From: Mageeibacillus sp.
GTDB lineage: Bacteria; Bacillota; Clostridia; Saccharofermentanales; Saccharofermentanaceae
Assembly (NCBI GenBank): GCA_022484595.1
Contig: JAKVLB010000002.1
Location: 73,635 to 137,634, forward strand
Direction of reading: 5' to 3'
DNA length: 64,000 bases
Positions 20,361-24,434 of the stretch are shown piece after piece (position 1 is the first letter of the stretch; each line of letters starts with the position of its first letter). The notes below the pieces were generated by a model. It had not been told where the DNA came from and did not search any database. It saw nothing but the letters and a program-made list of their open reading frames with translations. Position numbers and translations under genes: made by a program.

Positions 20361-21851
20361 CTATATCTGAGCGTCCTGTGCGCCCTCGATCGCCTTGATT
20401 ACCGCGGCGGCTTTGTTGATGCATTCCTGGTACTCAGTCTCCGGAACGGAATCCGCCACAATTCCGGCACCTGACCTTATGAAAATCCTGTTGTTCTTCT
20501 TATAGGCAATCCTTATCGCGATACAGGTATCAAGGTTCCCGGCAAAATCAATGTATCCTATCGCGCCGCCGTAAATTCCGCGCTTATTGCCCTCAAGATC
20601 GTTAATCAGCTGACATGCGCGGATTTTTGGCGCGCCGGACAAAGTCCCGGCCGGCAGCACCGAATCAATCGCATCAATTGCATCTTTATCCGCACGAATC
20701 CTTCCGCTCACCGTGGATCCGATGTGCATAACATGTGAGAAACGCTGAATCTCATGATATTTCTCAACCTCAACACTTCCGAATTCACTTAATCGCCCGA
20801 TGTCATTGCGCCCTAAGTCAACCAGCATATTGTGCTCCGCGAGTTCCTTGGGATCCTGAAGCAGCCCTTTCTCAAGCTCAGCGTCTTCCTGAGGCGTCTT
20901 GCCGCGCGGTCTCGTCCCGGCGAGAGGAAATGTGTAGAGTTTGCCGTCAGTGAGCTTTACCAGCGTCTCAGGCGACGCTCCGGCGACCTCGACGTCAGTT
21001 CCCGAGAAATAGAACATATAAGGCGAAGGGTTGAGCGTGCGCAAAATTCTGTAAACGTTAAGCATACTTCCTTCGTAGTCCGCAGACAGCCTGTTTGACA
21101 GCACAATCTGGAAAATATCTCCTTCCCTGATATGCCGCTTGGCCTGCTCAACCATCGAGCAGAACTCATCCTTATCAAACAGGGGCTTTATCTCGGAAGT
21201 CAGCCTGCCCGGTCTGTCGCCCTCAGGCTTCGAGAATCTGATCAGCCCTGCCATTGCCTCAAGGTCGCGCTTCGCCCTGTCGTAATTTTCCTGAACCATG
21301 TCAAGTGCAATATTTGCAATCAGCACGATTTTCTGCTTAAGATTGTCAAACGCAATCACCTTATCGAAAAGCATCAGATCACAATCCCTGAACTTCTCCT
21401 CATCCTGAGCATCAAGCCTGAGACTTGGCTCGGAATACTTGATATAGTCATATGCGAAATACCCGACAAGACCGCCCGTAAATGTAGGAAGATAGTCAAA
21501 TCTCGGACTCTTGTGCTCGCTTATTATCACGCGCAGCACCTCCCCGGGCTTTTCCGTCATCGACACTTTCTCTTCCCCGTCACAGTCCCTGACAGTAAGC
21601 TCACCGTCTATGCAGGTAATCTCGGCAGTGGGTTCATACCCGAGGAAAGTGTATCTTCCCCACTTTTTGCTGTCCTCAACCGACTCAAGCATATACACGT
21701 GTTCAGAATTGTTCTTGAGTATCTGAAGCACATTGATAGGCGTAGTAAAATCAGAAAGGATCTCGCAGCTGACAGGTACATATCTGTACCCGGTTGCATC
21801 CGCTTTATCCGCAATAGCTCTGACTTCATCAATCGAAGGTCTGAATTCCAT
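20361..21851 (-). CDS. trpE: Anthranilate synthase component I
   Basis: LESVE...WGRY, GDIFQIVLS, NPSPYM, EHNMLVDLGRND and GTLSGAPK.RA. Confidence 0.97.
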   Translation of the reverse strand: MEFRPSIDEVRAIADKADATGYRYVPVSCEILSDFTTPINVLQILKNNSEHVYMLESVEDSKKWGRYTFLGYEPTAEITCIDGELTVRDCDGEEKVSMTEKPGEVLRVIISEHKSPRFDYLPTFTGGLVGYFAYDYIKYSEPSLRLDAQDEEKFRDCDLMLFDKVIAFDNLKQKIVLIANIALDMVQENYDRAKRDLEAMAGLIRFSKPEGDRPGRLTSEIKPLFDKDEFCSMVEQAKRHIREGDIFQIVLSNRLSADYEGSMLNVYRILRTLNPSPYMFYFSGTDVEVAGASPETLVKLTDGKLYTFPLAGTRPRGKTPQEDAELEKGLLQDPKELAEHNMLVDLGRNDIGRLSEFGSVEVEKYHEIQRFSHVMHIGSTVSGRIRADKDAIDAIDSVLPAGTLSGAPKIRACQLINDLEGNKRGIYGGAIGYIDFAGNLDTCIAIRIAYKKNNRIFIRSGAGIVADSVPETEYQECINKAAAVIKAIEGAQDAQI

Positions 21852-21893: not shown

Positions 21894-22220
21894 ATAAAAA
21901 AACGCCCCGACAGAAAATAGATTATTTCTGTCAAGGACGAATAAAAATCCGCGGTGCCACCTTGTATTCGCATCTTCGGGATGCGCGCTTAGCGGGATAC
22001 CAACATATCCCCGACTGCTTACGCGAGTCCTACGTTACGTTATACTTTGCTATTCACCTGAGCCAGCCATCTGTCCGTCAAGACAGCCGCACCGACCCGT
22101 AAATCGCATTTGAACATACCCTCAGCGGTCCATTTGATGAATTGTTTTCCGCCTCACTCTCAGCATCGGAGGCTCTCTGTGGGAGCATCATCACCGTTAT
22201 CTCCGCTTCAACGGTTTGAA
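21894..22220 (-). promoter_or_regulatory. T-box riboswitch (Trp-specific) leader of trp operon
   Basis: AGAGAG and GCUGAGA stem-I motifs. Specifier AAUGGA contains the UGG (Trp) codon at 22132-22130. T-box AAGGUGGCACCGCGG at 21963-21949, followed by an intrinsic terminator with a U-tract. TTGACA lies upstream at 22261-22256. Confidence 0.95.
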
Positions 22221-22530: not shown

Positions 22531-22643
22531 GTTCGAGTATAGCATTGCATTACCGGGAAAGCATTAACAAAAGGCAACAAAATTTTGACAAAAATGTTAA
22601 CTATTTTGTATATCAGTCAATATCCCTGAACAAAGAAGAACAA

Positions 22644-23300
22644 TCACCCGACAGCCTCAATCAGCCCGCTGATTTCATCTGTAGTCAACGGCCGGTTCTG
22701 TGCGTTAACCGCGTATGTGAAGCCTCCCGCGGTCCATGCCGCTACTGACCAGGAGTTGTCATTACCGCGAAGAATTACGGATTTACCAGCAACTGTAACT
22801 GTTCTTGTGACCTTGTAATCTGTATAATCACCACTTATGTCAGAACTGCCTGAAGCTTTGAGGACTTCGAGACCGAGACTTGAGTCGGAATCAAAATATG
22901 TAATGGCAATTGTATCTCCGAATCGTACGCTGATTAGGGAGTTGCTATATGGTTCCACTGTCTGCGGAGCCGTCATTGTAAACCCGGTTATTTTCGCGGC
23001 CTCATCCATGCTGTCAACTTCTTCTATCGGACTTCCGGAAAAATCGAGATAATCGGGCATCGATTCTGAAGCTGTTTCAGAAGACACCGTCGATATCTGA
23101 CCCGTCGCAGTTTTGAAAATGCCTGTATATTGTGCAAGAAAAAACATCGCAACTGCACATGCCGCTGCCGATACTGCGAGCACCGCCGGTCTCAGACTTA
23201 TCATCCTGCGTCCGGTGCAAAACTTTGCTGCCTCTTCGACATAGCAATCGTCGACTCCCGTAAGCGCGCGCATCAGCATCTTTCCCTTTGATTTCATCAT
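22644..23300 (-). CDS. Membrane anti-sigma factor (DUF4367-like C-terminal domain)
   Basis: N-terminal LMRALTGVDDCYVEEA motif typical of clostridial anti-sigmas, a single TM, and an extracellular domain ending in WT.GGFTY. ATGA overlap with the ECF gene. Confidence 0.75.
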   Translation of the reverse strand: MMKSKGKMLMRALTGVDDCYVEEAAKFCTGRRMISLRPAVLAVSAAACAVAMFFLAQYTGIFKTATGQISTVSSETASESMPDYLDFSGSPIEEVDSMDEAAKITGFTMTAPQTVEPYSNSLISVRFGDTIAITYFDSDSSLGLEVLKASGSSDISGDYTDYKVTRTVTVAGKSVILRGNDNSWSVAAWTAGGFTYAVNAQNRPLTTDEISGLIEAVG

Positions 23301-23875
23301 AACCGGAAGCCCTCCTTCCCGAGATAGCTGCGCAGCTCGTCGCGAGAGCGTTTGAGGCTCATCTTGACTTTGCTCACAGAATAACCTGTATTTGCCGCGA
23401 CATCTGCGACTGAATCTCCGAACCAGTATCTCCGCATGAATATGACGCGGGAATCGCGGCGGAGCGTACCAAGGAAAGTGTTTATTAACCCGGTGAGAAG
23501 TTCTGATTCAGCGGATTCTTCAACCGCTGAGCATTCGGTATCTGTTCTGTCCGGAATGCACTCCTCAAGTTCATCTGTAAGCAGTCCTGTACTGCCCTGT
23601 CCCCGCTTGACGGCATTTCGTCTGTCATACATGTCAAGCGACAGATTGCGCGTAATTCTGGCAAGAAAACTGCATAGCGAATCAGGCCTTTGCGGAGGTA
23701 TGGTATTCCATGCGTGAAAATATGTATCATTCTCGCATTCCTGAGCATCTTCGGTGCTGTGAAGAATGTTCACGGCAATGGTACAAAGCAGACGTCCGTA
23801 AGAGCTTTTCGACTCTGTTATCGCGTCTTCCGACCTGGCAAAAAACAGTTCTATGATTGATTCATCATCCATCAT
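23297..23875 (-). CDS. ECF RNA polymerase sigma factor
   Basis: DDESIIELFFAR, DAQECENDTY..AW, FLARITRNLSLD and region 4 IFMRRYW.GDSV.DVA...G.S.SKVKMSL.RSR. Confidence 0.93.
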   Translation of the reverse strand: MMDDESIIELFFARSEDAITESKSSYGRLLCTIAVNILHSTEDAQECENDTYFHAWNTIPPQRPDSLCSFLARITRNLSLDMYDRRNAVKRGQGSTGLLTDELEECIPDRTDTECSAVEESAESELLTGLINTFLGTLRRDSRVIFMRRYWFGDSVADVAANTGYSVSKVKMSLKRSRDELRSYLGKEGFRL

Positions 23876-24360
23876 TGTGCCGGACTTATACTGACGTCCT
23901 CAACGCCTGTTATCTCTGCGTTGCCGTCAAGATCTTCGTAAATGTAAACCTTTACGAATGTCGGTTCAGAGTCAGGAATGACAACTGTTTCACGGCAAAG
24001 AATGCAGTAATTGGTGCCGGCGACGACTTGTGTCCCGAGCAGCGCCACAGGCTCATAATCCGCACCGTCAAGGTTCTCGGTCGCTTTGTCAAAAGCAGCC
24101 CCGGCATCCGAACCGGACTCAATGCTCCAGTCCCCGCCGTTTGTCTCCCATCCGCCGAGTACCATATCAGATTCATCTGCGCTTTCAGAGGAATCGGTAC
24201 TTACGTCAGCTGCCGATGTATGTGATTCCGAAACAGAAGATTCTGCGGAAACGGAAGACGAGGCGCTCGTTGTCTCGACCTTACTTTGCGGAATACATCC
24301 TGCCAATGCTACCAGAACTGTTACGGCAACCGCCGCTGTCTCTAATCTGTTGATTCTCAT
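23872..24360 (-). CDS. Lipoprotein with C-terminal cystatin/stefin-like domain
   Basis: Lipobox LAGC, Ser/Glu-rich linker, then LGGW...TQVVAGTNY...VKVY...ITG, which parallels stefin A (PGGL...TQVVAGTNYYIKV...LKVF...LTG). Confidence 0.7.
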   Translation of the reverse strand: MRINRLETAAVAVTVLVALAGCIPQSKVETTSASSSVSAESSVSESHTSAADVSTDSSESADESDMVLGGWETNGGDWSIESGSDAGAAFDKATENLDGADYEPVALLGTQVVAGTNYCILCRETVVIPDSEPTFVKVYIYEDLDGNAEITGVEDVSISPAQ

Positions 24361-24406
24361 ATAAATCTCCTGCCTTTCTGAAGGAACTGACTGCCTTCAA
24401 CTATAC

Positions 24407-24434
24407 AGACGGGAAAAACATCATCCGCGTCACA
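24407..24434 (-). promoter_or_regulatory. ECF-type promoter upstream of lipoprotein-sigma-antisigma operon
   Basis: TGTGAC-N17-CGTCT with a T5 tract before the -10, resembling Bacillus ECF promoters TGAAAC-N16/17-CGT(A/C). Confidence 0.6.

Follow-up and report, generated by a model that had tools for sequence, protein, structure and literature searches.

A stefin-like lipoprotein as the probable output of an autoregulated extracytoplasmic function sigma/anti-sigma module in Mageeibacillus

Type-1 cystatins, the stefins A and B (MEROPS I25A, PF00031), are single domains of about 95 amino acids (aa) without disulfides, in which a helix lies on an antiparallel sheet and the inhibitory wedge is made up of an N-terminal Gly and two hairpins. 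Among the systems built on extracytoplasmic function (ECF) sigma factors, SigV-RsiV of Bacillus subtilis and Clostridioides difficile senses lysozyme, and RseA-RseB-sigmaE and CseA-SigE encode a third exported protein together with the sigma/anti-sigma pair. Kordis and Turk (2009) catalogued bacterial stefins in silico, some of them in Clostridia, and proposed that they act as emergency inhibitors against host proteolysis (PMC2784779). Gut and oral commensals also carry eukaryotic-type inhibitors of another class, directed at serine proteases: the siropins, which are serpins of Eubacterium siraeum (PMC5127057), and miropin of Tannerella, which are thought to target host proteases. Here we describe three genes within a stretch of 64,000 nucleotides (nt) from Mageeibacillus sp. 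(GCA_022484595.1, contig JAKVLB010000002.1, positions 73,635 to 137,634 of the forward strand; hereafter the window, with positions counted from its first letter) that join a stefin-like lipoprotein to an ECF sigma factor and its anti-sigma factor. Together they appear to form a protective module with a protease inhibitor as its output, a coupling that we did not find in the published literature: full-text searches returned bacterial cystatins only as in-silico entries, no report of an ECF sigma factor connected with either a cystatin or a serpin, and no mention of sigma control of siropins or miropin. An earlier reading made from the letters of this DNA (the sequence-only reading) had likewise known of no characterised cystatin-ECF operon.

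The same reading had described three genes joined by ATGA overlaps, and we confirmed the open reading frames on the minus strand at 22644-24434, with 4-nt joins at 23872-23875 and 23297-23300:

23872..24360, minus strand: lipoprotein cystatin gene, 162 aa, with signal peptide and lipobox LAGC (aa 1-22), tether (aa 23-65) and stefin-like domain (aa 66-162)
23297..23875, minus strand: ECF sigma factor gene, 192 aa, in ATGA overlap with the cystatin gene
22644..23300, minus strand: single-pass anti-sigma factor gene, 218 or 209 aa

Like the stefins, the lipoprotein has a single disulfide-free domain of about 95 aa, a helix against an antiparallel sheet, an N-terminal Gly and a QVVAG first hairpin, its L-x-G second hairpin may correspond to theirs, and a role in protection against foreign cysteine proteases would fit the emergency inhibitor idea put forward for the bacterial stefins (PMC2784779). 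Unlike the stefins, it is predicted to be exported and lipid-anchored on a long acidic tether, it stands behind an ECF promoter, its similarity to PF00031 lies below threshold, and its relatives usually occur in tandem (2-4 domains) and are sometimes fused to a DUF4367-like domain. With SigV-RsiV the locus shares a Firmicutes ECF sigma factor, a single-pass anti-sigma factor with a short cytoplasmic N-terminus, an autoregulated operon that would co-encode envelope protection against a host or predator enzyme, and an available site-2 protease. The likeness is functional only, however, since the ectodomain is unrelated to that of RsiV (no match to DUF4179/DUF3298, and RsiV is absent from the Foldseek matches) and the output would be a protease inhibitor rather than a peptidoglycan-modifying enzyme. 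The sequence-only proposal of a circuit analogous to SigV/RsiV that induces a co-encoded protective gene stands as far as the wiring goes, through the linkage and the promoter described below, and is strengthened by the sister-genome serpin; in sequence the anti-sigma is not RsiV-like, its ectodomain being DUF4367-like instead. The resemblance to RseA-RseB-sigmaE and CseA-SigE lies in the third exported protein, and in a structural echo of LolA/RseB-like folds in the ectodomain that is too weak for membership; unlike RseB and CseA, the exported protein of the window looks like an effector, with promoter copies of its own in relatives. Siropins and miropin, although of the other inhibitor class, come close through the lipoprotein serpins that follow the same promoter in sister genomes.

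The lipoprotein has a canonical lipobox (LAGC, Cys22) and continues with an acidic, Ser-rich linker of about 45 aa (aa 23-65) that is disordered in the AlphaFold2 (AF2) model, after which its C-terminal domain carries LGGW, TQVVAGTNY and VKVYIYEDLDGNAEITG, in that order. By translation the codons of TQVVAGTNY occupy 24007-24033; the sequence-only reading had the motif right but its span, 24007-24030, covers QVVAGTNY only. Human stefin A carries the same nine residues, which is consistent with our profile alignments to stefin A chains.

23875..24165, minus strand: cystatin (stefin-like) domain, aa 66-162, with G69-G70-W71, the Q111-V-V-A-G115 hairpin and the L144-D-G146 second hairpin

Identifying this domain required family profiles and structure prediction, as direct family searches gave nothing; a PDB search with the single lipoprotein sequence returned antibody noise only. 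At least 662 homologues exist, the majority about 250 aa long with two tandem copies of the domain and some with four, and PF00031 is matched by 10 of 20 representative homologues (best E 1.1e-5). A profile of the isolated domain finds almost exclusively cystatins in PDB (E 0.003-0.4), with tick sialostatins, Fasciola and Dictyostelium stefins and human stefins A and B among the matches; the best alignment spans LGGW and QVVAGTNY, and the LGGW of the window aligns with the N-terminal LGGW of PDB cystatin 8r28. The AF2 model, built on 112 sequences, predicts a strand (71-73), a helix (84-94) and four long strands, with a predicted local distance difference test (pLDDT) of 84-97 over aa 70-160, and Foldseek ranks 1-8 of this model in PDB are all cystatins (probability 0.99-1.00, template modelling (TM) score on the target 0.46-0.60, E 0.004-0.07). 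This bears out the earlier assignment of a cystatin fold to the C-terminal ~95 aa.

Furthermore, conservation across the 112 homologues falls on the wedge: Q111, V113, G115 and N117 are invariant, W71, L144 and G146 are invariant or nearly so, and G69 and G70 of the GGW motif are kept in at least 90% of the sequences. In the AF2 model QVVAG lies between strands 100-112 and 116-126, and the second hairpin, where type-2 cystatins have PW and stefins L-P-x, is without PW and places L144 and G146 (DLDG) in the loop joining the last two strands, a loop that may correspond to SLPG of stefin A. Collectively, the AF2 model with its Foldseek matches, the PF00031 matches of homologues, the PDB cystatin profile matches and the motif conservation lead us to accept the lipoprotein, on sequence and model grounds, as a stefin-like member of the cystatin superfamily. 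It is probably also a genuine cysteine-protease inhibitor.

The second gene encodes sigma2 and sigma4 regions only, in about 190 aa, and is thereby an ECF (group 4) sigma factor. The protein scores above the Pfam cut-offs for both PF04542 (Sigma70_r2, 33.2 bits) and PF08281 (Sigma70_r4_2, 25.9 bits) and reaches 54.6 bits against TIGR02937 (sigma70-ECF, cut-off 42.9), a model with three matches in the window's genome, the operon sigma among them. It is part of a large paralogous family in the order. For its linkage to cystatins we surveyed one genome per prokaryote species and obtained 478 loci with cystatin relatives, mostly from rumen, gut and oral Bacillota, of which the best 80 were examined. 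An ECF sigma gene adjoins the cystatin gene on the same strand in 19 of these 80, and the order is cystatin-sigma-anti-sigma in 13 and sigma-anti-sigma-cystatin in 6; an anti-sigma factor with the same ectodomain is also present in 16 of the 19. Next to the closest single-domain homologue (P0024, 59% identity), the following gene begins with MEDVAIVELFFERSEDAITE, the same sigma N-terminus. The suggestion that homologues would be linked to ECF sigma genes is therefore upheld by 19 of the 80 loci, by two gene orders and by a shared promoter. Chance adjacency of cystatin and sigma, which we considered, is ruled out by the two conserved orders and that promoter; above all, the keeping of the same partners in two gene orders argues strongly against it.

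Upstream of the operon lies a sequence that recurs before related genes:

24407..24434, minus strand: ECF-type promoter, -35 TGTGAC at 24434-24429, 17-nt spacer, -10 CGTCT at 24411-24407, 46 nt 5′ of the ATG
24380..24398, minus strand: possible 5′-leader hairpin GAAGGcagtcagttCCTTC, read from the sequence, within the leader segment GTTGAAGGCAG

The leader segment directly follows the -10 element and resembles the conserved GGTGAAAGGCAG of related cystatin promoters. A scan for sigma-70 type consensus found no such promoter upstream of the operon. When upstream regions were aligned, two promoter classes emerged. The first, TGTGACC-N15-17-(C/T)GTCT, goes with orthologous sigma factors that are 47-58% identical to that of the window and are accompanied by the same anti-sigma type, and the second, TGTCAC or TGCAAC-N16-CTGTATATA, accompanies a sigma clade further removed from that of the window and is found at Ruminococcus-type loci and before many stand-alone cystatins of the same genus. 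Of 109 cystatin loci, 38 carry the motif no more than 500 nt 5′ of the first cystatin domain; with 0.705 motifs per kb there vs 0.022 per kb in the rest of these loci, the enrichment is 32-fold.

In the six sigma-anti-sigma-cystatin loci the motif occurs twice, before the sigma gene and before the cystatin gene, and in four of the genomes with that order (G241-G244) sites are essentially confined to these two places. Lachnospiraceae bacterium JC7 has its sigma/anti-sigma operon and its cystatin gene on separate contigs, with TGTGACC...TGT(C/G)T before both. Within the 1.92-Mb genome of the window the strict motif occurs three times, and the operon copy is the only intergenic one. In Lachnoanaerobaculum (L028, L060), a stand-alone two-domain cystatin gene has a promoter almost identical to that of the window (TGTGACCttataacatttttcCGTCTGTATA, TGTGACC...CGTCT); no close homologue of the window sigma was found at E<=1e-10 in two Lachnoanaerobaculum genomes (L028, L033). 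An AAC-like -35 and a CGT-like -10, the marks of ECF autoregulation, are present, and the same motif precedes orthologous sigma operons, which is comparative evidence that the sigma factor acts on its own operon. Because a positively autoregulated ECF sigma factor and a direct target typically leave such a pattern, we regard it as well supported, and very probable, that the sigma drives the cystatin.

The third gene encodes an anti-sigma factor with two short N-terminal helices (aa 3-29), a transmembrane segment (aa ~38-57), a disordered stalk (aa 58-87) and an ectodomain, here called X (aa 88-218). Its start is ambiguous, giving 218 aa from the ATGA overlap (AGGAGG 10 nt upstream) or 209 aa in other gene callers.

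22647..23039, minus strand: ectodomain X, aa 88-218, beta-rich, AF2 pLDDT >95, with the motif ...SSDISGDYTDY...AAWTAGGFTYA

The N-terminal motif MRALTGVDDCYVEEAA is common to proteins encoded after related sigma factors, and both this motif and the ectodomain are kept after orthologous sigmas in 16 loci. A word-indexed search with the anti-sigma gave six relatives, and the other relatives were taken from the fetched loci. The family motif of X reads RKGxGTxDISGDYNxY ... AxWxDGxYxYS. Thirteen two-domain cystatins have a C-terminal extension homologous to X; in other cases the domain stands by itself after a signal peptide, or follows a copper-amine-oxidase N-terminal-like domain. The window's anti-sigma matched nothing in Pfam or NCBIfam, PF14285 and DUF4179/DUF3298 included, and a PDB profile search with the ectodomain gave nothing meaningful; the X domain of one cystatin fusion matches DUF4367 (PF14285) faintly, at E 0.23 over the whole model, and one anti-sigma orthologue has a precomputed PF14285 match and the NCBI name DUF4367. 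Ectodomain X thus appears to be a divergent DUF4367-like domain. Of all the features, the most intriguing is that sensor and effector have this domain in common: it could serve to recognise the target enzyme, to bring cystatin and anti-sigma into homotypic contact, or to retain the proteins at the surface.

Besides this operon, a second ECF sigma/anti-sigma pair, one of the three matches to the sigma70-ECF model, is present in the same genome outside the window (C4:75894-76331, minus strand; C5:1774-2770, plus strand). The N-terminus of its anti-sigma, KYNEYMSHIKVDGDMRERL, resembles Ruminococcus-type cystatin-linked anti-sigmas, and TGCAAC-N16-CTGTA, the promoter of the pair, shares its class with the GCAACATTTT...CCTGTATATA motif before a DUF4349 lipoprotein gene.

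The nearest orthologues of the sigma (52-58% identity) come from four genomes of the same genus, where they are paired with the same anti-sigma type, and these genomes provide a view of the regulon. TGTGAC-N16-18-CGTCT occurs 6-9 times per genome in these four vs 1-3 times for a reversed control, and most of the sites are found 1-70 nt ahead of exported-protein genes, five or six in number and nearly all with a lipobox. The sigma operon is itself preceded by this promoter. A lipoprotein serpin of ~434 aa (PF00079, E 8.5e-77) directly follows TGTGACC-N16-CGTCT in each of the four genomes:

Serpin loci under the promoter: L169, L158, L167 and L172, in genomes G013, G163, G065 and G166

This suggests that the serpin is sigma-controlled in the sister species; a search of the window's own genome found no serpin. 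One of the four genomes also has a two-domain cystatin-family lipoprotein under the same promoter, and the other members include a DUF4349 lipoprotein, small DGTTY-type lipoproteins and a WG-repeat protein. A family of small lipoproteins behind the same promoter (L173, L178, L176, L171) has a conserved C(D/A)xxxYxFxFYD block, for example CDGTTYCFIFYDEDGNPH in L173, and matches nothing in Pfam, NCBIfam or PDB; these proteins are candidates for a further inhibitor or protective protein. PDB and NCBIfam searches with the remaining lipoproteins of this regulon gave no identity. At one end of its range the module would thus be a switch dedicated to the cystatin, as in the window, and at the other a small surface-lipoprotein regulon that includes inhibitors of two unrelated protease classes. 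Because the regulon of the relatives holds inhibitors of two protease classes together with other lipoproteins, the cue is possibly broader than cysteine proteases.

What the inhibitor would act on can be approached from the genome. No papain-family peptidase (PF00112) is encoded in the 99%-complete, 1.92-Mb genome of the window, which rules out a self-regulating endogenous protease/inhibitor pair; the target is therefore probably foreign. For the release of an anti-sigma by regulated intramembrane proteolysis a site-2 protease is needed, and one of the RseP/RasP type (M50) is present. Cysteine peptidases make up a major activity of the rumen, where protozoa digest bacteria by means of cysteine and serine peptidases and lysozyme (PMC6908469), and the reliance of rumen protozoa on such peptidases makes a predator- or host-derived target plausible.

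We prefer, with modest confidence, to read the three genes as a self-contained ECF module under positive autoregulation that yields, as its direct output, a surface-tethered cystatin against foreign papain-family proteases. At rest, the anti-sigma would keep the sigma factor at the membrane through its short cytoplasmic N-terminus. An external signal, most likely attack by a foreign protease or another envelope insult that removes or remodels the ectodomain, would act on the disordered stalk or on the DUF4367-like domain; the remnant would then be cut by the site-2 protease and the sigma released. Free sigma would read TGTGAC-N17-CGTCT and produce cystatin, sigma and anti-sigma from one translationally coupled message. 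The cystatin would be exported, lipidated at Cys22 and held off the membrane on its ~45-aa acidic tether, where the stefin-type wedge (GG, QVVAG, L-x-G) would block papain-family cysteine peptidases from outside the cell. As the genome encodes none of these, their sources would be external, possibly protozoan predators, the host, plant feed or other microbes. The parts of this scheme differ in strength. At the level of wiring it is shown comparatively, by conservation across loci; regulated proteolysis of the anti-sigma is something we infer; and proteolytic attack as the trigger is a tentative proposal, to which we give somewhat less than even weight. A more far-reaching version is possible, though we think it doubtful: gut and rumen Clostridia may have an inducible anti-protease defence in which the DUF4367-like ectodomain serves as a receptor or bait for foreign digestive proteases and its loss frees the ECF sigma to raise surface inhibitors of several protease classes (the cystatin in the window; cystatin, serpin and other lipoproteins in sister species), protecting the cell against protozoa or host digestion. 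On this version, the ectodomain fused to cystatins would be a target-recognition module common to sensor and effector.

Several observations weigh against the module as we read it. The lipoprotein itself has no match in Pfam or NCBIfam, PF00031 not being reached at E<=1, and the E-values of both the PDB profile (0.003-0.05) and the Foldseek matches are modest. Some three quarters of the genes in this family stand without a sigma gene beside them, and in the four same-genus genomes no cystatin adjoins the closest sigma orthologues. As to the sensor, a recognisable protease-binding or bait feature was not found in the ectodomain, and the Foldseek matches of that domain, to LolB, LolA, TP0453 and RseB-like proteins only, are weak with poor TM-scores, so that none of these folds is claimed for it. 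No intrinsic terminator was predicted after the anti-sigma stop (22644) in 22545-22644 of the minus strand, the nearest terminator-like hairpin being at 22315-22290. Finally, with DUF4349 and other lipoproteins in the regulon of the relatives, the system could be a general envelope response.

That last point can be turned into an explanation of its own, in which a general envelope-stress ECF system answers a non-protease cue, such as damage to the wall or membrane, lysozyme, bile or antimicrobial peptides, the cystatin being one of several protective lipoproteins, and the regulon in the window's small genome happens to be reduced to it. Such a system would account for the five or six exported-protein genes behind the same-genus promoter (DUF4349, DGTTY-type and WG-repeat proteins, not inhibitors alone), for a sigma factor drawn from a large paralogous family in the order, and for an ectodomain of the DUF4367-like kind, which is generic in Firmicutes anti-sigmas. 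It sits less easily with the cystatin as the only convincing target in the window and in the searched sigma-anti-sigma-cystatin genomes, with two mechanistically unrelated families of protease inhibitors under one promoter, and with the specific fusion of this ectodomain to cystatins in 13 loci; overall we consider it rather unlikely, but the main rival.

Two further explanations leave the sigma linkage in place and change what the lipoprotein does. It might mainly be an accessory of the anti-sigma, in the manner of RseB for RseA or of CseA for the SigE system of Streptomyces, that regulates the stability of ectodomain X by binding to it and is not the effector. The position of the cystatin gene, first in the operon and translationally coupled to the sigma gene, would suit this, as would the cystatin-X fusions, from which Rosetta-stone logic suggests joint action of the two domains; yet the fusion loci still encode a separate anti-sigma with an X domain of its own, no positions in the family are more conserved than the three protease-contacting motifs, and the cystatin has its own promoter copy in sigma-anti-sigma-cystatin loci while many cystatin genes are unlinked, which fits an output and not a stoichiometric partner. 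We regard an accessory role as improbable. Of slightly smaller probability still is a cystatin fold put to non-inhibitory use, in ligand binding, adhesion or as an immune-modulating surface antigen. Monellin, the cathelicidin pro-domain and the fetuins are non-inhibitory members of the superfamily in eukaryotes, and the failure of the window protein to reach PF00031 and the lack of the type-2 cystatin PW motif in its second hairpin would be in line with such a role. Against it stand GG, QxVxG and L-x-G, invariant or nearly so exactly at the stefin-protease contacts, the tandem two- and four-domain versions, which resemble multicystatins, and the co-regulation with a serpin.

The operon is flanked by housekeeping genes, with typA, an MltG/YceG gene and a U32 peptidase-family gene on its 5′ side and a small unit, a T-box leader and trpE/trpG on its 3′ side. 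The T-box leader (21930-22220, minus strand), upstream of trpE (20361-21851) and trpG, matches Rfam RF00230 (E 1.9e-15) with 73.8 bits, short of the gathering score of 93. An identical 162-aa protein is found in 190 sample blocks of public assemblies, with the same gene context in each of the eight places displayed. In a near-identical strain (L192, GCA_022647515.1, contig JALCKW010000013.1) gene calling gives a 137-aa fragment for the sigma and three pieces for the U32 gene, probably through assembly frameshifts and not real decay.

Bacterial cystatins have so far been database entries with a guessed role, and the locus bears on how commensals withstand a protease-rich gut and protozoan predation. 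If the preferred reading of a cystatin-producing ECF module is true, a sigma switch for a cystatin, and for a serpin in relatives, would be direct evidence of regulated anti-protease defence in bacteria. The three genes, with one promoter, one sensor and one inhibitor, offer a compact test system, and they point to the microbiota as a possible source of surface-displayed cysteine-protease inhibitors. Such a defence may also bear on the nitrogen economy of the rumen, where protozoal proteolysis of bacteria wastes microbial protein.

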